From the IMG/VR virus record IMGVR_UViG_3300024270_000002: DNA of 64,000 nucleotides; one strand, 5' to 3'. Under the pieces are notes generated by a model. It did no database searches. It was not told the origin of the DNA and was given only the letters and a program-made list of their open reading frames with translations. Positions 1,330-52,312 of the stretch are shown piece by piece; position 1 is the stretch's first letter; each line of letters starts with the position of its first letter. A program made the position numbers and the translations under genes. The DNA is from a virus (Duplodnaviria; Caudoviricetes).

Positions 1330-1406
1330 GCAGGCTTAACTCAGTTGGCCAGAGTGCGATCCTTACAAGTTCGAAGTCGGGAGTTCAAGTCTCTCAGCCT
1401 GCACCA
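1330..1406 (+). tRNA. tRNA-Val(TAC)
   Basis: GCAGGCT/AGCCTGC, loop CTTACAA, A73-CCA. Confidence 0.88.
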
Positions 1407-1522
1407 GACGAGTTCGGTTTATACTAGTTTTGTCGAATAACAAAGTCGAGAGACGAAAGGATGTTCCTCGAAGAGGTTGCAAACTCAGAGAGTTAGAAAG
1501 GTATGTAGTCCGCTCGTTGCCA
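1407..1522 (+). ncRNA. CCA-terminated multi-hairpin RNA with a tRNA-type acceptor stem
   Basis: GACGAGT/GCTCGTT-G-CCA; begins immediately after the tRNA-Val CCA. Confidence 0.45.
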
Positions 1523-1529
1523 ATTAAAT

Positions 1530-1602
1530 AGATAGTAAAAGGGACTCATAAGGCTGACGAGAAGTGTAGGCACTGAGGCCGGCTCGACTCCGGCTGCTAT
1601 CT
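1530..1602 (+). ncRNA. Degenerate tRNA-like element (acceptor stem plus T-arm, no CCA)
   Basis: AGATAGTA/TGCTATCT and GCCGG-CTCGACT-CCGGC. Confidence 0.35.
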
Positions 1603-1610
1603 TTATATTT

Positions 1611-1755
1611 CGGGATGTGGCTCAGTTTGGCTAGAGCACGTGATTTGGTCGGAATGATGTTAAGTAGCATACATTATAAATGAAGTGTGGGTTCAAATCC
1701 CATTTTCGGCACCAGGATCACGGGGTCGCAGGTTCGAATCCTGTCATCCCGACCA
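1611..1755 (+). tRNA. tRNA-Pro(TGG), interrupted in the anticodon (exon 1 1611-1647, exon 2 1715-1755)
   Basis: Joined exons give a canonical tRNA-Pro: CGGGATG/CATCCCG, CGTGA-TTTG^GGA-TCACG, A73-CCA. Confidence 0.88.
1648..1714 (+). ncRNA. 67-nt mini-tRNA inserted in the tRNA-Pro anticodon (tRNA-like intron)
   Basis: GTCGGAA/TTTCGGC-A-CCA; D arm ATGT/GCAT; stunted CATT-ATA-AATG arm; T arm GTGGG-TTCAAAT-CCCAT. Confidence 0.85.
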
Positions 1756-1758
1756 TAT

Positions 1759-1834
1759 GGAAAGTTGACGTACACGGTTGGCGTGCTGGACTGAAAATCC
1801 AGAGACTCTGGTTCGACTCCAGAACTTTCCACCA
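1759..1834 (+). tRNA. tRNA-Phe(GAA)
   Basis: GGAAAGT/ACTTTCC, CTGGA-CTGAAAA-TCCAG, CCA. Confidence 0.9.
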
Positions 1835-1867
1835 TTATTTTACTTAAATTTACGGTGAGGTATATTT

Positions 1868-2479
1868 ATGGCAGAGTTTTGTAAAGAGTGCTTTTTAACA
1901 AAGATTGATTCTTCAGTTAATCCTGATAATCTTGTTTTAAGTACAGAAGCAACTCTTTGTGAAGGCTGCGGTGAAAATAAGCCTGTTGTATTAGAAGTAG
2001 ATAATACACCTAAGCTTACTATCGCTGAATGTCAGGTAGAAACTCAGAAGCATATTGAGGCTGTTAGAAAGTATATCAGATTTATGATTGATAAGATTGA
2101 TATGCGCGGCGTAAAGCATGATGCTTCTAAGCTTGAGAGTCCTGAAGTAGAAGTATTTGCAGAGTATACACCAAAATTGAATAATACAACATTCGGTAGT
2201 GAAGAGTACTATCAGAATTTAGATCATATGAAGTCTGCTTTAGATCATCATTATGCATCTAATCGCCACCATCCGGAGCATTTTGTTAATGGAATTAATG
2301 ATATGACATTAATTGATATTTTAGAAATGTTTTGCGACTGGAAGGCAAGCACTCTTAGACATAATGATGGAAATCTGCTGAAGAGCATTGAAACAAATGC
2401 TGAGCGCTTTAACATGGAAGGTCAGCTTAAACAGATTTTAATCAATACTGCTAGAATGATTGACGAACATGAAGATTAA
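1868..2479 (+). CDS. DUF5662-like HD-type protein with N-terminal Zn ribbon
   Basis: HDASK...HHY..NRHHPEH...EMFCDW; paralog at 47169. Confidence 0.7.
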   Translation: MAEFCKECFLTKIDSSVNPDNLVLSTEATLCEGCGENKPVVLEVDNTPKLTIAECQVETQKHIEAVRKYIRFMIDKIDMRGVKHDASKLESPEVEVFAEYTPKLNNTTFGSEEYYQNLDHMKSALDHHYASNRHHPEHFVNGINDMTLIDILEMFCDWKASTLRHNDGNLLKSIETNAERFNMEGQLKQILINTARMIDEHED

Positions 2480-5549: not shown

Positions 5550-5589
5550 AATTAAAAATTTAAAAAATATATTGTATAATATATTATAC

Positions 5590-6471
5590 GGGCCTGACCG
5601 ATAACTTCCCGTAAGGGAATGAAAGAGGTAAACTGACAAGACCTCGCTGTGATGAGCAGTACCTCAGGCAATGTGTGACGGGACCTGTAAGAATTGAAAA
5701 GATTCTTACGAATATGCTAACCCCATGTTCTAACTTATCAATGATGAAATGAAAAGAGTTTAGTTGAGGGTCAACTGACTGAACTATTCTCGCTCTCGCA
5801 AGGAGCTGGCTTCAACGCAAAAGGATTTGATGAGGTAAGGTAAGCTACAGGAAGTAAAATAGTTCGAGTTTAGCAAGCAAGGGCGACTTCCATTTATATC
5901 TGCTACGGTGGGTATAAGAAATATGAGTACAATGCGACGGAAAGTATTGAAGGCGGGTAGCATTCTTGCACTCAAAAGGTGTGAGAACTACGACAATAGT
6001 CTGTCTTCTGTCAATCTCAACTTAGCGTGGGTTGGAATCCCACCCCGGGTGCCAATTTGATTTTAACACCTCGGGATAGTTCGCACCTATCCCTTATATA
6101 CCCGGGTAGCTCAGTGCTAGAGCGGTTGTCATAGGAAAACAATGTCATGAGTAAAAATCTATTGTTAGAAACAGAGAAAAGTGTCTTAAGCCCACAGCTG
6201 GTAAGGCAATGTGGGATATAAGGTGTCACAAGCATCTTGTATTTGATTGAAATGAATCTATAGGGGTGTAGCAACCTCGAACAGCCCGCAAGGTTGATAG
6301 TGGAATGATAATCGAGTAGCTGTTTCTGTAAAGGCGTAAGCAAGCCTGGAGCCCTTGTGCTGGGGTGACGAATTGCAGGCATGAGCGGTACTTCCCAAAA
6401 GGAAGTGGAAAAGTGACTAAAAAATAAGGTCATTAAGTCGTAGCAACTGAAAGATATATTCTCAGTCTTTT
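5590..6471 (+). ncRNA. Large ROOL-like structured RNA containing a permuted tRNA domain (6018-6128)
   Basis: ORF-free unit from promoter to hairpin plus T run; long-range pair CTACGAC(5988)/GTCGTAG(6437); segments CTCAAAAGG, GAAAACAATG, ACTAAAAAATAAGGT recalled as ROOL-like (not verified). Confidence 0.55.
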
Positions 6472-6569
6472 AATTTTCTTACCATCCATTTTTGGATAAA
6501 GTATTATACTAATTGCCAATGAGGCGCTCGAAGACAGCGATATTCAGCCGCTGCCAATTAGTATTTTAT

Positions 6570-6645
6570 GCTCGATTCTTCTAGTTGGTCAGGAAGTAAG
6601 ATTCTCAATCTTAAAACAGGTGTTCAAACCACCTATCGAGTACCA
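6570..6645 (+). tRNA. tRNA-Glu(CTC)
   Basis: GCTCGAT/ATCGAGT, TAAGA-TTCTCAA-TCTTA, CCA. Confidence 0.85.
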
Positions 6646-6759
6646 GGCGCTGATGTGAAGCAAATAGAGGGGCAGCGACTTGGGGCACCCCAGGAGCGGT
6701 GTTACCAAACCCCAATGTGCGGCGAGAGCCTTAGGAGACCTTATTCCTGGCTTTTATAT

Positions 6760-6834
6760 GCGCGGTTAGTTTAATGGATAGAACGTGTGGCTACGGACCA
6801 TGAGATATGGGTTCGATTCCTGTACTGCGCGCCA
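6760..6834 (+). tRNA. tRNA-Arg(ACG)
   Basis: GCGCGGT/ACTGCGC, loop CTACGGA, CCA. Confidence 0.88.
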
Positions 6835-6837
6835 TAA

Positions 6838-6913
6838 GCCTCTGTAGTCTAGTTGGATAAAACAAGGGACTTCTAATCCCTCGTCCTGCGTTCAAGTCGC
6901 AGCGGAGGTGCCA
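6838..6913 (+). tRNA. tRNA-Arg(TCT)
   Basis: AGGGA-CTTCTAA-TCCCT, G73-CCA. Confidence 0.88.
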
Positions 6914-6990
6914 ATTTTACATAAGTTAATTAAAAAAATAAAATAAATATTGTATAATATAATATAAAATTTATTTAGTAGATACTTAAA

Positions 6991-17509: not shown

Positions 17510-18245
17510 AGAGCTAATTACTTGGATTAGAGAACAGTTTAAAGATATTCCTGATGGTCATGCCATTATCGGTATTTCAGGCGGTAAGGACTCTACTATC
17601 GCTGCAGCGCTTTGTGTTGAGGCCTTGGGCGCTGATAGAGTAATCGGAGTATTAATGCCACAAGGCGTACAAAAAGATATTAGTGATTCTTATGAAGTTG
17701 TTGCAACTCTTAAGCTTCAGTATCATGTTGTTAATATTGGAGCTGCCTGTGAAGAATTATATCGTTCTATTAGCGATGCTGTTTTTCTTTGTGGCGGTAA
17801 AAATGCAATAGAATCTAATTCTATGATTACGACAAATGCTCCGGCAAGAATGCGTATGACTGCTTTGTACGCTATTGCAGCACTTTATACTAATTCCCGT
17901 GTGGTAAATACCTGCAACGCATCCGAAGATTATGTTGGTTATTCCACTAAGTATGGCGATGCAGCTGGGGACTTTTCGCCTCTCGGTAATCTTACTGTGA
18001 GAGAGGTGCTTAAAATTGGGGATGATTTAGGCCTTCCTAAGCATTTAGTGCATAAGCCGCCTTCTGACGGTATGTGCGGTAAAACAGACGAAGATAATCT
18101 TGGATTTACTTATGAACAGCTTGATGACTATCTTTTGGGAACAGGCGATGTTCCGCTGGATGTAGTTGAAAAAATTAAAAAACTGCATAAAGCTACTCGA
18201 CACAAATATGTACTTATGCCAATGTTTAATAATTTTAAAAAGTGA
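17493..18245 (+). CDS. nadE: NH3-dependent NAD+ synthetase
   Basis: GISGGKDS, ARMRM, GYSTKYGD, KPPSDG, TDE. Confidence 0.92.
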   Translation: MLQKTKELITWIREQFKDIPDGHAIIGISGGKDSTIAAALCVEALGADRVIGVLMPQGVQKDISDSYEVVATLKLQYHVVNIGAACEELYRSISDAVFLCGGKNAIESNSMITTNAPARMRMTALYAIAALYTNSRVVNTCNASEDYVGYSTKYGDAAGDFSPLGNLTVREVLKIGDDLGLPKHLVHKPPSDGMCGKTDEDNLGFTYEQLDDYLLGTGDVPLDVVEKIKKLHKATRHKYVLMPMFNNFKK

Positions 18246-19456
18246 GGAAAATAACTATGATGAAGCTTAGTCCTATTATTGTATCTTTGTTGGATACCGA
18301 CCTTTATAAATGGAATATGTGTCAGGTATTCTTTCATAAGCATACCAATATGAATGGTAAGTATATTTTTAAATGTAGAAACGAAGGAGTAGAGTTTACT
18401 TCTGAGATGGTTGAAGAAATCAATGCTCAGATCGACCACCTCTGTACTCTTACGCTGACTGATGAAGAACTTGACTATCTCGCTTCTTTGAGATTTATTA
18501 AGAAGGACTATGTTGAGTTCCTTCGTATTTGGAGACCACTTCGCAGATATGTAAATTGTTTTTATGATGATAGTAGCCCCTGCAAGATGAGAATTGAAAT
18601 CGAAGGGCCACTTTTCTCAGTAATGCAGTTTGAAATTTATCTTCTTGAAATTGTTAATGAGACGTATTTCAGAATGAAGTATGATTATATGCAGCTTGTA
18701 GAGTCAGCTAAAGACAGACTTTATTATAAGACTAATTCTTTTAGGCTGGAAGAATACGATTTTAAATTTGCTGAATTTGGTTGTCGAAGAAGACTTTCCA
18801 GAGAATGGCAGGATTATGTAGTTAGCGAGCTTCTAAAGACCGGCAAGTGCGTAGGCACTTCTAATACGTATCTTGCGATGAAGTATGGTTGTAAACCCAT
18901 TGGAACTTACGCTCATGAGTACGTTCAGATGTTCCAGGGAGTTCCTGGTATTCAGCTTGCGTACACAAATAAGGTTGCAATGGAAGAGTGGTTTGATGAG
19001 TATCAGGGAGATAATGGAACTGCACTTACTGATACTCTCGGAACAGACCTTTTCCTTAGAGACTTTAACAAGCTTCAGGCAATGTGCTATACTGGAGTAA
19101 GACATGATAGCGGAGATCCTTATGAGTGGGGAGAAAAAATTATCGCTCATTATGAGAAGCTTGGAATTGACCCCAAAACAAAGACTCTTCTTTTTAGTGA
19201 TAGCCTTGATTTTGTAAGGGCTCAGGCCATCTATGATTATTTCAACAAAAGAATTAATGTAAGCTTTGGTATTGGAACTTATCTTTCAAATGACACTAAT
19301 GTAAATCCTCTTAATATTGTTATTAAGCTTCAATATGTAAATGGTCACCCCGTCGCAAAGATTTCTGATAATCCCGGAAAGGCTATGTGCCAAGATGACT
19401 CCTATCTCGCATATTTGAAAAACGCAGTTGATTATAGATTAAAGGAAGGTATTTAA
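18242..19456 (+). CDS. pncB: Nicotinate phosphoribosyltransferase
   Basis: LLDTDLYK, EFGCRRR, GTSN, GTYAHE, RHDSGDP, FSDSLD, KISD. Confidence 0.92.
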   Translation: MRKITMMKLSPIIVSLLDTDLYKWNMCQVFFHKHTNMNGKYIFKCRNEGVEFTSEMVEEINAQIDHLCTLTLTDEELDYLASLRFIKKDYVEFLRIWRPLRRYVNCFYDDSSPCKMRIEIEGPLFSVMQFEIYLLEIVNETYFRMKYDYMQLVESAKDRLYYKTNSFRLEEYDFKFAEFGCRRRLSREWQDYVVSELLKTGKCVGTSNTYLAMKYGCKPIGTYAHEYVQMFQGVPGIQLAYTNKVAMEEWFDEYQGDNGTALTDTLGTDLFLRDFNKLQAMCYTGVRHDSGDPYEWGEKIIAHYEKLGIDPKTKTLLFSDSLDFVRAQAIYDYFNKRINVSFGIGTYLSNDTNVNPLNIVIKLQYVNGHPVAKISDNPGKAMCQDDSYLAYLKNAVDYRLKEGI

Positions 19457-28317: not shown

Positions 28318-31300
28318 ATGCTTACAAAAAATGAAATTGCCACCTTAAACTTATCTCCAACTAAAAAAGATTTTGTTCAAATATGGAATGAGCTTTTGGA
28401 AGTTGCAGGTAGGCTATCTGAACGGTGGGACCCGACAAGTACTAACGAGAGTGACCCTGGTATTGTCATATTAAAAGCACTTGCTGGTATTGCTGATAAG
28501 TTAAATTATAATATTGATAAAAACACTCTTGAGGCTTTTATGCCAACAGCAGCACAGGAAGACTCTATGCGCAAGTTATGTGACATGTTGGGCTATAACG
28601 TTAAATACTATAGATCTGCTGAGACTGCTGTTACCATTAGATATTATAATTCAGAACCCTCAGATGATGAAAAGTCAGCCTTAGAGATAGGCCTTGCTAT
28701 TCCAAAATTTACCGCTATTACAAACGGTGATCAAGATATTAATTATTTTACTACTAATCAGACTGACGTCTATATTTCATCAACAACCCCATCTATTACA
28801 CTCAGCTGCATGGAAGGTCAGATTGTTAAATGTGAGAGTACTTCAGATAATAATGTAATTACAGCAAGTCAGATTTCTGAACGTAATAGATTTTATCTGC
28901 CAGAGGCACAAATAGCAGAAAATGGTATATTTGTGTATAACGTAGCATTTGACCAGAAGGACGGTGCCAATTGGGAAAAGGTAGATAATTTAAATATCCA
29001 GAGGCGTGGATCTCGTGTTTTTAAGTTTGGTTACGATTCCTATGAAGGACGTCCTTATATCGAATTTCCAGAAGACTATAGTGAATTAATTAACGATGGT
29101 CTTTTTATATATTATGCTAGAACAAGCGGTGCAAACGGAAACATCTCTGCCAGAACATTATCTCAGCTCGAACCGCCAAGTTCCTGGAGTGGTATATCTG
29201 CTGAGAGCTTTAGTGTTGAGAATGCTTTTGCCGCTACTACTGGAGCCAATCTTGAAACGATTAATCAAGCTTATAACAGTTTTAAGAAAACTATCGGTAC
29301 ATTTGAAACGCTCGTTACATGTAGAGACTATATGAATAAAATCTATACAATGACTGCAGACGATACAGGTAAGCCTTTGGTGTCAAACGTATTAGTTACA
29401 GATATTAGAAATGACTTGAATAGGGCTATTACTATTTGCAGCTGTGATGATGCAGGCATTTTCTATAAAGATACTCCATTGACTGCACCTGTTACAAAGA
29501 CACTTAAAGTCAAAGATGGCAATGTTGTTAAAATGGTGACTGCTGAAGTAGAGGAGCCTGTAATAAATCACTTTGACCTGGTGCTATATCCGTTTAAGGC
29601 CTATAATCAGATTAGGGGCAATGTTACCGATATCCAAGAGGTTTACGATTCTTCTTTTAAGTATAATCCAAAAATGCTAACAGACATAAAAAGTAAGCTA
29701 GATGATTATAAAACAATCGCACACACTATAAAAGAGCCGAGACTTGGTGATGTTATTAGTATAAATAACTATCTTAGACTAAATGCGGTTATAGGTACTA
29801 ATACTAAAATTACAGTAGAAGAAAGAACCTTATTAGTCGATACTATTAAAATTGCTCTTGCTAATGCTTTTAATATGCGTGAGCTTGACTTTGGTGAGGA
29901 AATTCCTTTTGATAGCATTGTAGAAGTTATTGAGAAAGCAGATGCTAGAATTAAGATAGTATCTTTAGCAGAGCCTGCCTTATACACAACATTCTCTGTA
30001 TTAGACGGGTATAATGATAATACTCCAGTAGTTCGTGAGTACGCAGTAGCTTCTGATTGGCTGACCGAAGAGACTGCAGATGCAGTTGGACGGTTTGACT
30101 ATACAGACGGACACACATTTAATACACAAGAAGCAAAGAAGATTTATAATAGACTAGCAGTACGTAATGTGCTTGCCGGTAGAGTACCTTTATTTAAATA
30201 TAACGATACTTTTAAAACTAGCTTTTCTGAAGGCGCATACCGTACCACTAAAAATGTTTTAGAGGATGAGATACCTGAACAGCTACGTACGCCAACTAGC
30301 ACAGAACCATTTACCATTTATACTGATAAGAATGATACTTACACCGGTCAGTTGGTTTCACAAGTAGAAAAACCTGTGAATTTTCCTGACGATGTTTCTA
30401 AGTGGTATGATGATACTGAAAAGGTTTATTATGTTAAACAACCAGGTATTGATCAGCCTGTATACTCTAAGCTCGTTTATACGAAAACATCTGTTCCAAA
30501 AAACTATATTAATAATATAATAGCTAAGACAGACGACGGTAACAATATTACTGAAATTGTAACAAGCTGTGTGATAAATTCCGATAAAGATGCTGCAGGA
30601 GAACCTACATATGAAATCTCAGACGTAACGCTAGCTGCAGGTGAAACAGTAAAATTTAGGGCTCCTAATTTTACTACTGATAGAACATACCCTGCCTATG
30701 TTAACTATCATCTTAAATTGAAAACTGCAACCGCGCGTGTGGCGGAGGCTGCGAAGGCATACACATTATCCAGTTTGCTGAACTCTCAGGTCGATGGTCG
30801 CGGATTGACCCCAGACGAAAGGCGACAGAGAGCGCTTAATTACTTTGCAGCAGCAGGCCATAAGCATACTTTTACACTTACGCAAAAAGTACTGAAGAAA
30901 ACTTCAGATAGTATCGATAAAGAAGATGAGTTTACATTAATAAAAATTGAAAATGACTCAAGTATAATAACTAAAGAAAAACCAGAAGATATCTTAATTA
31001 AGAGTGGTTTTGTAAAACTTACTAACACAAAGCCAACTCTTGCCTGGATAGATGGGCCTAAGAACTCTAAGCCAGATTTGGATATACCTAAACTAGATTT
31101 AGGTGACTCTTTGTTTATTGTAAACGCTGGAGTGTTTACTAATATTAAAACGGAAGTAGACGAGTATATAACTTATTTAAATACAAATTACCCTAATAAG
31201 CTTCCAACAGAGTATGACTGGACGATTTCTTATACTTTTGAATATGTACCATTTGAGGAGGCAACACTATCAGAGTGGAAAAATTTTATCATTTCTAATG

Positions 31301-34300
31301 GTAGACTGCTCTTTGGCTTCTATCCAGTAGTAGAAAGCGAAACGGTGCTGTGGCACGCAACAGCTGGTGGATATAACTTAGGTAAAAATGTACTTTCAAA
31401 TACGGCTAAGTTATTAGCATTCACGCGGGGCGATTTCGGATTCCTAGACTCTTTTACAACTCGCTTATTAGGTGTGTATGTAGCAGAAGACCTTGGAAGC
31501 GATCAAAAAGCTACTAGTATCGCCAATGACGAAGAGTATATGCTACGTAGTGGCGAAAAGCTATTTATCGAGTATACTCCTTCAACTACTACGGAAGATG
31601 GTGCTAGCCAAGACCAAGCCGTAGTCACAGAAGTTTTTGGAGAAGGGACCATAATTAAGCCGAGTGGGTTTGAAAGTAATTTAATAGACTCTTCTGTTTA
31701 TCAACAGGACCACACTCCTCCTAAAAAGGTCAGCTTTACTGATAGTGATAAAGACATACCATTATTCAGCTTGGGGGCAAGCGAGCAAATAGAAATTCGT
31801 GAGCTTGCTAAAGTAACCTTGAATAGAGAAAATCTTCCTAATACACCACAGATTTATGTTTATAAAAACTTTAATAACTGCCCAGAATTAGAAAAGCTTT
31901 CTACAGACGGTAGTAGTTATTCAGGCGGAAAGCGTATAAATAGTTCTTACACTTTAAAAGACGGTGAGTACATTTTTTATACTGACCAAAACATGACAGA
32001 GTTTGCTTATTTTACTTCCGGCACTGAAGTTACCCTTTATGGTTCTACAGTTCTACCACAGTTTGATATCATAGACCTTGCGACTATTTTTGACAACGGT
32101 ATTCAAGAGATTCCTTGGAAATTAATACCGTTAGTAAATGATAATGGTATTAATTTCCAAGAGTATCAGTATGTTACTTTGGGTGAAGGCGATACCCTTA
32201 ATCGCATATTTTTAGCAGGTTTACGTCCATTAAATGAGTCATGGCAAATGTGTGATAAAGTAGAATATACTATGGCTGGAGCGAAGAAAGACGCGCTACC
32301 TAAGATTAATATATTTGATGCTACTAACAGCGGAAATGGCTGGGAAGCATGTAGCGCACTTGAATTAAAGGTATCTCAGGATACTGCACAGACGTTACGT
32401 AAAACGGATAAAATAGAAACTAAGATTGTTCTTAAAGATAGTAATAATGAAACGTTTATGACGCTAGAAGCTGAGAAGGAACATCCGGTATCTTTCAAGA
32501 CAAATCTTCCGTGTCAAACAAGTAGTGGTAAGTTAAACATTTCAGACCTATACACAAACCCAAATAAGCTGAAAAGCTTTGAACTGAAGGTTTTTGCAGA
32601 AGAGACGCCTGCTATAATAAAAACAAAAACTGGTACACTGATACCTTACCAAGATGATACTGCCAAAGACTTAGTAGATGTTGCAAATTGGCCAGTTGAC
32701 CAAACGCTTTCTGTCAATGACTTTGGTACTTTGTGGAAGCCCGTGGCATTATCAAGTCTTACTTTTGCCGAAGATGACCCTTATACTAATGCCTTAAGGC
32801 TATCAGTTAGTACAATACCAAATACTTATGGCATTTTTAGTATTTATCTAGACTACAGAAAAACAGAGCCCTTATATGCTCAGACCTGGATAGAGCTTCT
32901 TCCTGGAGTAGACACGCAAAATGTTGAGCTATTCAATAGTACAGTTAAATGGGAAGATAATAAGCTAATGTTACATTCTGGTATTAACTGTATTCGTGTT
33001 AATAAAACAAGTGATCTCTTTATTAAGACAAAAGCTACTGACGGTGCATTGTATTTTGACAGCATTAGACTTGTAGACTGCCGTCCTGTTGAGTATATAG
33101 AAAATGGTAATAAGGTAGCTAAAGTCACACAGGGACTGAATCTATCTCAAATAGGCTATTTAGATACTTCCGACGATAGTACTTTTAGTGTGTTTGACAG
33201 TCGTATTCGTAAAAAACTGCGTGATGAGCTTACGAATTCCGCCCTTGATAGTTTAGAAGAAAGGGCTAACGAAGAGTCTGCTATCTTTGCAAGTACTTGG
33301 GATGAGTTACTCGTGTCTAAGACGGCTATGCAAGATCTAGTAGACTGTATAACTAGCGCTATCACCGAGATTGAGTTACTTAATACATCTAACGGTACAG
33401 ATACACCTTCCGAAAAAGAAGAAGAGCTCATAGCCATCTTTGATAAATATAAGCAGATTTCGGAAAAACTAGATAAAGAGAAAAACCTAAAAACTGCTTT
33501 AGATAATAATAGTACTGTTGATGAGCTTGAGCGTCAACTAGCAGACCTTGCTAGCAGTCTTACAAATACTGAAACAGAGCGCCAAGACTTGCTGACCAAA
33601 TTGGAGCTTGTAAAAGCGGGCGCAGAAACTAACGCTAATAATTTTTCTAAGGATACTTTGCGTAATGGCGATATTTTAGACGATTTTGTGAATGCCGCTG
33701 ATATTGTATTGCAGCCAAGCCTAGTAGACGATATTAAATTTGCTAGTATGCGTAAAATAAATACTCGTTATGGAGAGCAGCTAGACAGTCTGGCGGCTGA
33801 TATCGAAAATGTTTTAAAATCAGAAGAAGCTTTAAATAATTCGTTAAGTTATTTACACGCGACAAAACATACCGTGTTATTAGAACAAGTCGAGGCACTG
33901 ATAAGCACGTATGAGGCATCTTTGAGCTCGTCTATTAAAGACGTACAGGATCTTGCTATAGGAACAGACAAAGAGGGTGTTATTGTAGTAGACTATACTG
34001 CCTTAGAGTCTGCATTAAATAGCTTAAAAGAGCATATAAGTACTACTGGTATTAGTCTACTAATTGCTAGAATTGAGTCTACTGCAGACAGTAGTTTATA
34101 TACTGAGCTTGCTGAAACGATAGATGCTTTAAAACTTTTACTTGAGGCGCAAGGAACAAATAGTAATATTATAACAGCTATCGATTCTGTAATTACTCTT
34201 GTACAAAATAAAAACAATAGCAAGCCAGATGAGACCATAAAAGGTAATTTGGAGTCTATTAAAGGTGATATTTCTAATTATTATACTGCAAAATTACAAA

Positions 34301-36009
34301 TTGCTTTGGACAGTATAGATAATATACTTTCCTCATTAGAGGATACTTATAAGGGAGCTAAAGACTATCTTGACAATCAAGAGGATGCGCAGATCAAGCT
34401 TATTTTAAGCAGACTTGAGAATATTTCTAACACTGCTACTGCCTGCTTAGACTTGGTGAAGACCTTTGGTGCCGCATCTGATTTTAACATTACGACTGAT
34501 TATGCGTGTTTACCGTTTGGAGAAGATGCCGTCTTGACGACTTGGCCGGTATACATGCGACAGGCGCTAATATCTGGAATTGGGTTACTTTATGAATATA
34601 CTCGAAATGCGGCAAATAGCCGACAAATAGATTTTGAAGCAGCTATTAATGCGTTAGAAAACCGAGCAGTTCTTGCACAAGCTGCCGACCTTAAAGCTTT
34701 TAATACACTATTTAATACTGCAAAAACTTTAGCAGCTCGTATTAGCCAGAATCATTATTATGAACTAGCTATTGCTGATCTTGCAAATCTAATCGTACCA
34801 TCAAGCGAACTAAAAGAGTTACTTGATGCCGAGAACGACTACGTATTAATGCATCTCATCTCCGAGTTTAAAGATACTGCAAATGTTGCAGAGCAGCAAC
34901 GATTAATTACAGAACTTAAGAGTGAGCTCGATAATGTAATTAAGCTAGATACGAAGTTAGCTGAAATAAGCGCAAAATTATTATGCCCTAGTATATTGCT
35001 TGCGGATAGCAATAAAAAATTATCTGAAAATAGTGTGTTCTTTGAAAGATTCTTGAATTACGCTGTTGGCAAAAAGAAGACACTTTTAACGTTGTCTAGT
35101 AACTTTACCATGGAGCTGAATTCACTGACAGCTGAACTTGAAGAAGCTCTTGCGACAACTGGTTCTCTGCTTAATGCAATAAAAGCTGGGGATATAGCTC
35201 AGTTTGACGTTAACAAGTGGGAAAATATTACTACTACAGATGAATCGTCAACTCTACTGTCAGAGTATTATTTAGAAAAGCTAACTAAGCTTAAAGGCAC
35301 TTTAGATATTCAAGAGCTAATAACTAAAATAAAAAATAGTAAGCTCTTTGATTTCTTGAAAAAAAATTTTGTTATTGCTTGGCAAATTTGTGAGATTTAT
35401 GATGAGAAGGTGGACGGCAAGTTAGTTGAGAATACTAGAGAAGTTTGGATAGACGGAGCCGGGGAGTATATAATCCAGAATACTGGCAGTAGCTGGCAAA
35501 CAGTAAATGGCGATATTGTAGAGCTAAGACATTACGCTGATGGTAGATGGACAGATTGCCGCAATGAACAAGAGGTAGAGCTTATCGTTAAATCTGGTGA
35601 TAGCTGGCTAATCGAAGGTAAAGAGGCCTTCTCTGTGACTGATGAAAAGCTAAGTTTGTTGCTAACCGGTACTGACGACAAACCAGGTCTACTTGAACAG
35701 GTAGCGAGCTTGTGCAATAATAGTATTACAAAGTCATTTAAAGATGCTTATAGCATAATAATACTAGAGGAACAGCTTTTAGAGGAACTTAGCGACCTCG
35801 ATAAGAATGGAGATTTTTATTACAGCGTTCCTGTGGAGTCTAACTTTGCTATAGACTTTAATAAAGGTGATTCTACCGCAAATACTTTAATGAACCCTAC
35901 TGTCAATTATGATATCAATAATGTAAATAATAATTTTGTTATTTCAAAAATAGATATTGATTACTTGACAAAAGGACTTCAAATTGCACATTCATCTAGG
36001 CTAAATTAA
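28318..36009 (+). CDS. Giant baseplate wedge protein (gp6/J-like N-terminus), 2563 aa
   Basis: KDF..I..EL, ESDPG, DKLNYNID, LGY, LVT.RDY; position after gp25. Confidence 0.7.
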   Translation: MLTKNEIATLNLSPTKKDFVQIWNELLEVAGRLSERWDPTSTNESDPGIVILKALAGIADKLNYNIDKNTLEAFMPTAAQEDSMRKLCDMLGYNVKYYRSAETAVTIRYYNSEPSDDEKSALEIGLAIPKFTAITNGDQDINYFTTNQTDVYISSTTPSITLSCMEGQIVKCESTSDNNVITASQISERNRFYLPEAQIAENGIFVYNVAFDQKDGANWEKVDNLNIQRRGSRVFKFGYDSYEGRPYIEFPEDYSELINDGLFIYYARTSGANGNISARTLSQLEPPSSWSGISAESFSVENAFAATTGANLETINQAYNSFKKTIGTFETLVTCRDYMNKIYTMTADDTGKPLVSNVLVTDIRNDLNRAITICSCDDAGIFYKDTPLTAPVTKTLKVKDGNVVKMVTAEVEEPVINHFDLVLYPFKAYNQIRGNVTDIQEVYDSSFKYNPKMLTDIKSKLDDYKTIAHTIKEPRLGDVISINNYLRLNAVIGTNTKITVEERTLLVDTIKIALANAFNMRELDFGEEIPFDSIVEVIEKADARIKIVSLAEPALYTTFSVLDGYNDNTPVVREYAVASDWLTEETADAVGRFDYTDGHTFNTQEAKKIYNRLAVRNVLAGRVPLFKYNDTFKTSFSEGAYRTTKNVLEDEIPEQLRTPTSTEPFTIYTDKNDTYTGQLVSQVEKPVNFPDDVSKWYDDTEKVYYVKQPGIDQPVYSKLVYTKTSVPKNYINNIIAKTDDGNNITEIVTSCVINSDKDAAGEPTYEISDVTLAAGETVKFRAPNFTTDRTYPAYVNYHLKLKTATARVAEAAKAYTLSSLLNSQVDGRGLTPDERRQRALNYFAAAGHKHTFTLTQKVLKKTSDSIDKEDEFTLIKIENDSSIITKEKPEDILIKSGFVKLTNTKPTLAWIDGPKNSKPDLDIPKLDLGDSLFIVNAGVFTNIKTEVDEYITYLNTNYPNKLPTEYDWTISYTFEYVPFEEATLSEWKNFIISNGRLLFGFYPVVESETVLWHATAGGYNLGKNVLSNTAKLLAFTRGDFGFLDSFTTRLLGVYVAEDLGSDQKATSIANDEEYMLRSGEKLFIEYTPSTTTEDGASQDQAVVTEVFGEGTIIKPSGFESNLIDSSVYQQDHTPPKKVSFTDSDKDIPLFSLGASEQIEIRELAKVTLNRENLPNTPQIYVYKNFNNCPELEKLSTDGSSYSGGKRINSSYTLKDGEYIFYTDQNMTEFAYFTSGTEVTLYGSTVLPQFDIIDLATIFDNGIQEIPWKLIPLVNDNGINFQEYQYVTLGEGDTLNRIFLAGLRPLNESWQMCDKVEYTMAGAKKDALPKINIFDATNSGNGWEACSALELKVSQDTAQTLRKTDKIETKIVLKDSNNETFMTLEAEKEHPVSFKTNLPCQTSSGKLNISDLYTNPNKLKSFELKVFAEETPAIIKTKTGTLIPYQDDTAKDLVDVANWPVDQTLSVNDFGTLWKPVALSSLTFAEDDPYTNALRLSVSTIPNTYGIFSIYLDYRKTEPLYAQTWIELLPGVDTQNVELFNSTVKWEDNKLMLHSGINCIRVNKTSDLFIKTKATDGALYFDSIRLVDCRPVEYIENGNKVAKVTQGLNLSQIGYLDTSDDSTFSVFDSRIRKKLRDELTNSALDSLEERANEESAIFASTWDELLVSKTAMQDLVDCITSAITEIELLNTSNGTDTPSEKEEELIAIFDKYKQISEKLDKEKNLKTALDNNSTVDELERQLADLASSLTNTETERQDLLTKLELVKAGAETNANNFSKDTLRNGDILDDFVNAADIVLQPSLVDDIKFASMRKINTRYGEQLDSLAADIENVLKSEEALNNSLSYLHATKHTVLLEQVEALISTYEASLSSSIKDVQDLAIGTDKEGVIVVDYTALESALNSLKEHISTTGISLLIARIESTADSSLYTELAETIDALKLLLEAQGTNSNIITAIDSVITLVQNKNNSKPDETIKGNLESIKGDISNYYTAKLQIALDSIDNILSSLEDTYKGAKDYLDNQEDAQIKLILSRLENISNTATACLDLVKTFGAASDFNITTDYACLPFGEDAVLTTWPVYMRQALISGIGLLYEYTRNAANSRQIDFEAAINALENRAVLAQAADLKAFNTLFNTAKTLAARISQNHYYELAIADLANLIVPSSELKELLDAENDYVLMHLISEFKDTANVAEQQRLITELKSELDNVIKLDTKLAEISAKLLCPSILLADSNKKLSENSVFFERFLNYAVGKKKTLLTLSSNFTMELNSLTAELEEALATTGSLLNAIKAGDIAQFDVNKWENITTTDESSTLLSEYYLEKLTKLKGTLDIQELITKIKNSKLFDFLKKNFVIAWQICEIYDEKVDGKLVENTREVWIDGAGEYIIQNTGSSWQTVNGDIVELRHYADGRWTDCRNEQEVELIVKSGDSWLIEGKEAFSVTDEKLSLLLTGTDDKPGLLEQVASLCNNSITKSFKDAYSIIILEEQLLEELSDLDKNGDFYYSVPVESNFAIDFNKGDSTANTLMNPTVNYDINNVNNNFVISKIDIDYLTKGLQIAHSSRLN

Positions 36010-50083: not shown

Positions 50084-52312
50084 ATGTTACATTTACATCA
50101 TAGTGGCTTTGTAGAAGGCCCTTGGGTTGATAGCATTGATGTAAGAGATTTTATTCAAAAGAACTATAAACCTTATTACGGAGATGCTACTTTCCTTGAA
50201 GGTCCGACAGAGCGCACTAATAACCTAATGAAAACTGTTCAGCTTCTTTTTGAAGAGGAGCGTTGTAATAACGGAGTAAGAGCTATTGATACTGAGATAG
50301 TAAGTTCGCCAACAGCTTATGAACCTGGATATATTGATATAGATCAAGAAATTATTGTTGGCCTACAAACAGATGAACCGCTTAAAAGAGGTGTTGCTCC
50401 ATTTGGCGGTATTAGAATGGCAAGACAGGCATGCGAAGCTTACGGCTACAAGCTTAGTCCAAAAATCGAAGAAGAGTTTAAATATCGTACCACTCACAAT
50501 GATGGCGTTTTCAGAGCCTATACGGAGGAAATGCGAGCAGCTAGAAAGTCACACGTAATCACAGGGCTTCCTGATGCCTACGGACGCGGTCGCATTATCG
50601 GTGACTATCGTCGTGTTGCTTTGTATGGTATTGATAAGCTTATTGAAGAAAAAATTAAAGATAGAAAAAAGCTAGCTTCAGCTACTTTTAATACTGACAC
50701 AATCCGCTTAACTGAAGAGCTCCATCAGCAAATTGCGTTTCTTGGTAAAATTCAAGAAATGGCAAAGCAGTACGGTTTTGATATTAGCCAGCCCGCTAAA
50801 AATACAAGAGAAGCTATTCAGTGGACCTATTTTGCCTATCTCGCTTCAATTAAAGAGCAGAATGGTGCAGCAATGAGCCTCGGTCGTGTTTCTACATTTT
50901 TTGATATTTACGCTGAAAGAGACATTGCTCTTGGGGTTTTTACAGAGCAGGAAGTACAAGAGCTGTTTGATGATTTTGTAATTAAGTTACGACTGGCTAG
51001 ACACCTTAGAACACCTGAGTATAATGAGCTGTTCGGTGGTGACCCTATGTGGATCACCGAGGCAGTCGGCGGTATGGGTGAGGACGGAAGAACCCTTGTT
51101 TCTAAATCAAGTTTCAGAATTTTGAATACTTTGTATAATCTAGGTCCTGCTCCTGAGCCAAACTTGACAGTTTTGTGGTCTGAACAGTTACCAAAGCCAT
51201 TTAAAGAATTCTGTGCTAAAGTTTCTATTGATACTGACTCTATTCAGTATGAAAATGATGATATTATGAGGCCTGAGTATGGTGATGATTACGCTATCGC
51301 TTGTTGTGTTTCTGCAATGAAGATTGGCAAACAAATGCAATTTTTTGGAGCTAGATGTAATCTTCCTAAGCTTCTTTTAATTGCCTTAAATGGTGGTTAT
51401 GATACTACTTCCGATATTCATATAGGTCCTCAAATGGCTATTATGGATGGCGAAGTCTTAGACTACGAAAAAGTAAATGAAAGACTTGATATTTATATGC
51501 AGTGGTTATCTCATTTGTATGTAAATACTATGAACGTTATTCATTATATGCATGATAAATATTGCTATGAGAAAACTCAAATGGCTTTACATGATACTGA
51601 TGTACATCGCTTTATGGCTTTCGGTATCGCTGGCCTATCAGTTATTACTGATTCTATGAGTGCAATTTTAAAAGCAAAAGTTGAGCCAATTAGAGATGAT
51701 AGAGGTTATATCATAGATTTTAAAACTACTGGTAACTTCCCTTGCTATGGAAATGATATTGATGAAGTAGATTTTATAGCGAAAGATATTTCTCATCGAA
51801 TGATTACCTATCTAAGGCAGACGCCAGCATATAGAAATGCTGAACATACATTATCTATTCTTACTATTACTTCTAATGTAATGTACGGTAAACACACTGG
51901 TGCAACTCCTGATGGACGAAAAGCTGGTGAGCCTTTTGCGCCAGGTGCTAATCCAATGCATGGTAGAGATTGGACTGGACCTTTAGCTTCACTCAATTCA
52001 GTAGCAAAGCTTTCGTATGATGACTGTAGAGATGGCATTTCTAATACTTTCTCAATTATTCCATCAGCGCTAGGCCATTCTGTTGAAAATATGGTTTCTA
52101 ACTTAGTGGCAATTCTTGATGGTTATTTTAAACAAAAAGCACATCACCTTAATGTTAATGTTATGAATAGAGAAACACTCCTGGATGCATATGATCATCC
52201 GGAGAAATATCCAAACTTAACAATTCGTGTAAGCGGTTATGCAGTCCACTTTAATAAGCTTTCACGCGCACAGCAAAGAGAAGTAATTAGTAGAACTTTC
52301 CATAGTATGTGA
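50084..52312 (+). CDS. pflB: Pyruvate formate-lyase
   Basis: [30 protein letters not shown] glycyl-radical loop. Confidence 0.95.

Follow-up and report, generated by a model that had tools for sequence, protein, structure and literature searches.

The GOLLD RNA of a gut phage and its genomic setting

The window, that is, the whole 64,000-nt stretch of viral DNA analysed here (IMGVR_UViG_3300024270_000002), contains phage genes for topoisomerase II subunits, a DnaB-type helicase, a DNA polymerase and a nicotinamide phosphoribosyltransferase, together with 18 tRNA genes, called by ARAGORN, that form an array around an RNA of ~882 nt. The nicotinamide phosphoribosyltransferase-like gene (phrog_448) is located at 18242-19456 (+), and the largest open reading frame of the window, encoding 2563 aa, at 28318-36009 (+). 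A 742-aa glycyl-radical enzyme encoded at 50084-52312 (+), which is 58-69% identical to phage proteins annotated as pyruvate formate-lyase or formate C-acetyltransferase, is consistent with an anaerobic host. The tRNA genes between 624 and 7703 have very uniform flanks, with a TAT leader in most, and a low-scoring Rfam tRNA at 1648-1711 has no corresponding ARAGORN call. Entirely within the large RNA lies an ATG open reading frame of 138 aa on the opposite strand, 6017-6433 (-), which is in all likelihood spurious, though gene callers could be misled by it.

A scan of the whole window with the Rfam covariance models identified the RNA as a member of the GOLLD family (RF02032), with a match at 5948-6468 (+) that scores 160.1 bits, compared with a gathering score of 150, and spans the complete model (positions 1-416). 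This was the only non-tRNA match of the scan, and a permissive rescan of 5560-6500 added a single weak match, to YrlA. A first-pass annotation, made from the letters of the DNA, had described the RNA as ROOL-like and named the ROOL, GOLLD and tmRNA models as the means of checking it. Only the GOLLD model matched; ROOL returned nothing at its gathering score over the window or at E<=1 over 5560-6500, while tmRNA was found neither by ARAGORN in the window nor by any Rfam tmRNA family over 5560-6500. The ROOL-like label is thus wrong, and the RNA at 5590-6471 is the GOLLD of a large animal-gut phage. It displays the traits of that family, being located in a phage beside tRNA genes and consisting of a variable 5' domain and a conserved 3' domain; the 5' domain lies outside the Rfam model, yet is conserved among relatives. 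GOLLDs are giant phage RNAs, other members of which form hollow 12- to 14-mer cages as determined by cryo-EM (PMC12286853, PMC12990946). The earlier idea of a nanocage with tRNA decoys would, by analogy, fit these published cages. The features of the locus are as follows.

5552-5580 (+): promoter-like TTAAAA-17-TATAAT (10/12 matches) upstream of the RNA; RNA contigs start at ~5586
5590-6471 (+): entire GOLLD RNA, ~882 nt, delimited by contig depth; full length conserved in relatives
5590-5947 (+): 5' domain of GOLLD, variable and outside the Rfam model
5948-6009 (+): hairpin corresponding to positions 1-62 of the Rfam GOLLD model, just before the linker; closing pairs GAAGGC/GTCTTC 98% kept
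6015-6021 (+): 5' strand of the outer helix closing the tRNA module; register uncertain
6022-6026 (+): variable loop TTAGC (tRNA nucleotides 44-48), in which C48 covaries with G15
6027-6043 (+): T arm GTGGG-TTGGAAT-CCCAC, in which G56 covaries with C19
6044-6050 (+): 3' strand of the acceptor stem, CCCGGGT (nucleotides 66-72); 100% paired, 6/7 pairs compensatory
6051-6054 (+): discriminator G73 (6051) and encoded CCA (6052-6054), the CCA invariant in all variants
6055-6099 (+): 45-nt spacer joining the natural tRNA ends, with a hairpin at 6073-6093 whose loop ends in CAC; its 3' end is the invariant A6098 U6099 (tRNA positions -2 and -1)
6100-6106 (+): 5' strand of the acceptor stem, ACCCGGG (nucleotides 1-7), with a predicted RNase P cut between 6099 and 6100
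6107-6124 (+): U8, A9, D arm GCTC-AGTGCTA-GAGC (6109-6123) and nucleotide 26 (G26, 6124), from the covariation alignment
6125-6143 (+): anticodon-like arm, GTTGT, 9-nt loop CATAGGAAA and ACAAT; 96% paired, 4/5 pairs compensatory, also found by RNAalifold
6144-6151 (+): 3' strand of the outer closing helix, from comparison of homologues and RNAalifold
6152-6468 (+): conserved GOLLD 3' domain, Rfam model positions ~112-416

Relatives were gathered from viral, metagenome and genome collections with an exact 21-mer of the conserved 3' domain, and 15 loci align to the GOLLD RNA at 76-98% identity. A looser pattern search returned mostly chance matches, with ~10 of 116 loci being GOLLDs, and nhmmer was too insensitive for distant members of the family. 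The close relatives score 149-156 bits against RF02032, and their phage contigs range from 140 to 221 kb, one being complete with terminal repeats. Public runs containing DNA of the GOLLD RNA derive from animal faeces and bovine-gut metagenomes in 15 studies. As the RNA had no blastn match among 50,697 deposited phage genomes, there is no cultured relative. Two of the module contigs, L147 and L148, have been binned in metagenome-assembled genomes of Acutalibacteraceae and Bacteroidales, and may be prophages or mis-binned phage contigs. Another GOLLD-bearing phage contig, L100, encodes a full-length tmRNA (103 bits) at 6544-6940 (+), ~2 kb from its GOLLD.

A circularly permuted tRNA occupies the GOLLD linker

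Direct reading of the DNA bears out the most unusual element of the first-pass annotation: the 3' half of a tRNA (6018-6054, ending GCCA) lies upstream of its 5' half (6100-6128), the two being separated by the 45-nt spacer with its own hairpin. The D arm is complete and there is no G3:U70, again as had been claimed; position 3:70 of the module is C3:G70. In order, the module comprises the outer helix, variable loop, T arm, acceptor 3' strand with NCCA, spacer, acceptor 5' strand, D arm, anticodon-like arm and, finally, the other strand of the outer helix. It fills an unaligned insert that follows the first hairpin, in the single-stranded linker of the Rfam model. The RF02032 match spans 514-522 nt in the clade with the module but 405-448 nt in the GOLLDs of other phages, and the longer span indicates that the insert is specific to this clade; GOLLDs that lack the module are ~100 nt shorter at the linker. 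The variable linker of GOLLD has been placed in the interior of the 14-mer cage, and phage tRNAs are sometimes present at this site (PMC12286853). According to a passage of a review that cites Morgado et al. 2020, a Mycolicibacterium tRNA-Phe is located in GOLLD J13/15 (PMC12990946).

The evidence that this module is a tRNA fold comes from covariation in an alignment of 11 distinct homologues, which two further variants from metagenome-assembled genomes extend to 13. Across the 11 homologues 93.3% of the cells of the proposed structure are paired and 19 of 33 pairs have changed on both sides; none of 500 shuffles was as good as the real alignment, and slid controls also fell far below it. Every variant has an acceptor stem of 7 bp, in which all cells (100%) are paired and six of the seven pairs switch (ACCCGGG/CCCGGGT, ACGCCGG/CCGGCGT, ACACCGG/CCGGTGT, AGTCCGG/CCGGACT, GCGTCCG/CGGACGC and GCGGCTG/CAGCCGC). 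Among the same homologues the 5-bp T stem is 100% paired and the 4-bp D stem is devoid of variation. RNAalifold recovered the same arms independently, and the two further variants contain other compensated T and acceptor stems.

The covariation extends to tertiary contacts that occur only in the L-shaped fold. The 15:48 pair, between the D loop and the end of the variable loop, covaries in 11/11 homologues (G:C in seven, A:U in four), as does the 19:56 pair between the D and T loops (G:C in seven, C:G in four), while U8, A14, T54 and A58 are invariant. In the window itself an unusual T loop, TTGGAAT, occurs with the D loop AGTGCTA. When the halves were rejoined in silico in the natural order ARAGORN called a tRNA in 11/11 homologues; with the halves left in their native order, no tRNA was called at 6018-6143 by ARAGORN or by the Rfam tRNA model. 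It should be emphasized that folding of the single sequence is not significant (z = -0.54), and that the support for the structure is covariation. Judged on this comparative evidence, the module is shown to be an authentic L-shaped tRNA fold in circularly permuted order that is under selection. Indeed the comparison with homologues that the first-pass annotation had called for reveals a module kept by compensatory changes in 11-13 homologues that are 76-98% identical. Searching 35 loci with a covariance model built from the module brought up no additional permuted copies; scores for genuine members fall at 100-175 bits, and matches at or below 36 bits are junctions of neighbouring ordinary tRNA genes. 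A parental isoacceptor was sought and none was identifiable, the module being 65-74% identical to many tRNA types.

The module has its own anticodon-like arm

In the first-pass annotation the anticodon stem (CAAC 6018-6021 with GTTG 6125-6128) lacked a loop and continued into the flanking RNA. This element does not survive comparison with homologues, in which the pairing is present in 73% of cells and breaks in divergent members. GTTGT (6125-6129) instead pairs locally with ACAAT (6139-6143), an arrangement that is 96% paired with compensatory change in four of five pairs (GTTGC/GCAAT, GCTGT/ACAGT, ATCTG/CAGAT, ATATC/GATAT and ACATC/GATGT). As the anticodon-like hairpin is local and covaries, the alignment indicates a complete tRNA that includes an anticodon-like arm of its own; the opening lies not in the anticodon loop but at the junction between the variable loop and the 3' strand of the anticodon-like stem, and the anticodon stem does not open into the flanks. 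Thus, the permuted tRNA as originally read is real and under selection, while the family label and the loopless anticodon stem that accompanied it have had to be abandoned. The loop of the arm comprises 8-13 nt, retains GGAA(A) in most variants and has no conserved anticodon; the assigned 'anticodons' differ among variants (AGG, UGA, UAA and UUG).

The outer helix that joins the module to the remainder of GOLLD is short, and its register, which differs among subgroups, is uncertain. Two further helices that had been proposed, TTCTGT/ATAGGA leading from the module into the flanks and 5988-5994/6437-6443 between the flanks, are complementary in the window, the former being 82% paired in homologues, but in both cases the changes in homologues are uncompensated. 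The GGAA(A) of the anticodon-like loop (6130-6138) is also complementary to UUCUGU at 6006-6011, just 5' of the module; a pseudoknot could form between the two, and no compensatory change supports it.

Signals for tRNA processing are conserved within a rapidly changing module

Bacterial RNase P reads the 12-bp stack of acceptor and T stems, U(-1) and the 3' RCCA. The module contains these determinants, namely a 12-bp acceptor/T stack (7 bp plus 5 bp), U(-1) and NCCA, and an AU-rich trailer follows its CCA. A6098 and U6099 (positions -2 and -1) are invariant in 11/11 homologues within a spacer in which 84% of columns vary, and the acceptor stem varies in 86% of columns while its length is always exactly 7 bp. 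N73 switches with the 1:72 pair, G73 occurring with A1:U72 and C73 with G1:C72. The 18 ordinary tRNA genes of the phage have very similar ends: 15 have U(-1), 13 have A(-2) and 17 encode their CCA, and the TATAT leader of the module is identical in four of them. As the ends of the module resemble those of the phage's own pre-tRNAs, host RNase P would be expected to cut before A6100. No promoter-like sites were found in the spacer.

There is precedent for such a cut. The YrlA RNA of M. smegmatis, which shares the permuted topology of the module and has a 7-bp acceptor stem, undergoes RNase P cleavage in vivo, can be cut in vitro by M1 RNA, and gains CCA (Chen et al. 2014, PMC4201824); its halves remain in one particle after the cut, and YrlAs with shorter stems are not cleaved by RNase P (PMC4201824). 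The analogy with two-piece tmRNA, on which the first-pass annotation had based its proposal of processing, is also reasonable.

The spacer between the two ends is not without structure. All seven pairs of its hairpin (6073-6093) are compensatory across the 11 homologues, and the 7-nt loop ends in CAC (UUCGCAC, UUAGCAC, UAAGCAC and AAACCAC). Such covariation is surprising in a segment that would simply be discarded, and counts against its being so. The hairpin is missing from one homologue, L127. That it might mimic an anticodon stem was considered and rejected, as U33 is not conserved in the loop.

Turnover of the module exceeds that of the surrounding RNA. Within the close group of GOLLDs (overall identity >88%) the proportion of variable columns is 16-17% in the GOLLD domains and 40-43% in the acceptor strands, spacer and anticodon-like arm; the CCA never varies. 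In L127 the GOLLD, at 1382-2233 (-), is a mosaic: the 5' domain and the distal 3' domain match the L136 type almost exactly, while the tRNA module and the ~120 nt that follow it have strongly diverged, a pattern that suggests exchange of the module by recombination.

The GOLLD RNA is an abundant discrete transcript

Contigs from four gut metatranscriptomes, belonging to two studies, cover 5586-6472 at a summed depth of hundreds to thousands, while the flanks of this interval, including the neighbouring tRNA genes, have a depth of 0-13. These data fit a GOLLD RNA that is a discrete abundant transcript starting just after the promoter-like sequence at 5552-5580. The RNA data consist of assembled contigs, which cannot show the ends of molecules or rank the depth of parts of the RNA. 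Two RNA contigs from one study, 5983-6304 and 6007-6304, cross the spacer, and uncut molecules therefore exist. The putative processing at 6054 and 6100, as originally proposed, has only conserved signals and precedent behind it, and faces the uncut RNA that these contigs represent.

Two other aspects of the contig data were discounted. Contigs of runs X10 and X16 leave 6014-6115 almost uncovered, which might be read as excision; the loose ends there are variant modules and the gap is probably assembly breakage at a hypervariable spot. Similarly, the ~30% lower mean depth of the two spacer-bridging contigs compared with their neighbours was set aside, as contig depth cannot rank parts of the RNA.

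A model for the module and its rivals

The interpretation that we consider the most plausible, by a modest measure of belief, is that the permuted tRNA in the GOLLD linker is opened by RNase P and 3' trimming, that its halves are held together by the tRNA body, and that the module likely acts as a bait or docking site. Host RNase P would cut before A6100, probably co-transcriptionally; its substrate would be complete once nucleotide 6106 had been made, ahead of the cage-forming 3' domain. It counts against such a cut that the interior-facing linker could be shielded from the enzyme once the cage has formed. Maturation of the 3' end may then trim the trailer back towards CCA6054. Were the embedded tRNA of the ordinary kind, its excision would separate the two GOLLD domains, whereas the permuted tRNA would only be opened, generating a two-piece GOLLD whose halves are tethered by the tRNA body. 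Each protomer would thereby present a non-decoding, CCA-ended tRNA body and its elbow towards the interior of the cage, probably to lure or dock a factor whose recognition depends on the general shape of tRNA and not on its sequence. Such a partner would have to read generic shape, because the sequence of the acceptor stem and the 'anticodon' vary freely. The variation of identity positions likewise makes specific aminoacylation unlikely, which weakens the earlier suggestion of an aminoacylatable handle: the positions concerned in the acceptor stem vary freely. Genes that might have pointed to the partner, for tRNA processing or Ro60, were not found in the related phages; five related phage records, of which four are >=95% complete, gave no match to the TROVE domain (Ro60/Rsr), the CCA-adding enzyme and RtcB are absent from the related phages that carry the module, and an RNA-ligase domain is a borderline match in one related phage record only. 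A more ambitious version of the bait model, which we put forward as a speculation with little probability attached, is that a cage with 12-14 tethered, CCA-ended, non-decoding tRNA bodies inside constitutes a tRNA-shaped sponge or docking compartment, the permutation keeping the bait attached despite host tRNA processing. Such a structure might, for example, sequester a defence enzyme of the host that targets tRNAs, or retain a tRNA-binding factor while infection proceeds.

It could be argued that the same GOLLD with the same permuted fold is never cut, but persists as a closed, nuclease-resistant, tRNA-shaped junction that clamps the 5' and 3' domains together or mimics tRNA for a partner, as most YrlA RNAs do, with the spacer hairpin as a functional arm extending the acceptor stem. 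We regard this as possible, although it is the less likely course. The RNA contigs cross the spacer at depths similar to those of neighbouring GOLLD contigs, the hairpin covaries at 7/7 pairs with its CAC loop end kept, the linker is inside the cage, and neither S. Typhimurium YrlA nor D. radiodurans Yrn1 is cut by RNase P (PMC4201824), all of which an uncut junction accommodates. An internal loop that is never cut, however, has no obvious need for a CCA and an A(-2)U(-1) that stay invariant amid the turnover of acceptor stem and spacer; the acceptor stem is always exactly 7 bp, the feature that Chen et al. tied to RNase P cleavage (PMC4201824), and L127 dispenses with the hairpin altogether.

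That the locus is a working permuted tRNA gene, whose flanks are removed and ends ligated, or that the opened module is aminoacylated and participates in translation like tmRNA, we consider very improbable. All of the arms and the NCCA are present, and the 18 ARAGORN tRNA genes of the window do not include a Pro, Gln, Lys or Trp tRNA, which might leave room for such a function. The anticodon-like loop, however, has 8-13 nt rather than seven, and its 'anticodon' differs between variants; the synthetase identity positions 1:72, 2:71, 3:70 and N73 all vary; and the flanks are two functional GOLLD domains, not an intron. Ligation of the ends is not favoured by related phages that lack RtcB and in only one of which the RNA-ligase domain appears, at borderline level, and a tmRNA-like role is countered by the absence of G3:U70, of a tag reading frame and of any ARAGORN or Rfam tmRNA match. 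A functionless relic of tandem tRNA duplication, or a chance tRNA-tRNA junction, is hardly credible: the module covariance model does also pick up junctions of neighbouring tRNA genes, but at no more than 36 bits against 100-175 bits for true members, and this reading is refuted by the 13 variants, in which compensatory changes have preserved all of the helices and two tertiary pairs.

Relationship to known permuted tRNAs and RNA cages

GOLLD RNAs, linker tRNAs and permuted tRNA mimics cut by RNase P are each already known; in the literature searched we found no description of a permuted tRNA form in GOLLD, and hence of the combination. The cages formed by GOLLD and ROOL are among the most striking of recent RNA structures, and a tRNA fold built such that processing cannot release it would tie the function of GOLLD to the recognition of tRNA shape. 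The module would also extend, with a phage-encoded example, the short list of natural permuted tRNA-like modules that comprises two-piece tmRNA, YrlA and the algal and archaeal tRNAs.

In the permuted tRNA genes of Cyanidioschyzon merolae and of some archaea the 3' half also comes first, a short spacer is removed by RNase P and 3' processing, and maturation proceeds through a circle, generated by the bulge-helix-bulge splicing endonuclease and a ligase, to yield decoding tRNAs. The module differs from these in its functional GOLLD flanks, its bacterial setting and its non-decoding loop. In the two-piece permuted tmRNA of alpha-proteobacteria and some cyanobacteria the acceptor 3' strand with its CCA similarly lies upstream of the 5' strand, the intervening segment is removed and the pieces stay paired. 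In contrast with two-piece tmRNA, the module has no tag reading frame or G3:U70, and possesses a full D arm and an anticodon-like arm.

The module has in common with YrlA the order of T arm, acceptor stem closed by a loop, D arm and outer closing helix. The YrlA model (RF02553) scores 28.2-30.3 bits against it (E ~2e-4), short of the family cut-off of 69 bits. It differs from YrlA in its encoded CCA, in the extra anticodon-like arm, in lacking the Ro-binding stem and in residing within an 880-nt cage-forming host RNA. The closest counterpart by setting is GOLLD with an ordinary tRNA in the linker (Kretsch et al. 2025, PMC12286853), which belongs to the same family and shares the context of a phage tRNA array and the interior linker site. 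In the RNA described here, however, the tRNA is permuted, a spacer links its natural ends, it is attached at the junction of the variable loop and the anticodon stem, and its loop is enlarged to 8-13 nt, such that tRNA processing would open the module rather than release it.
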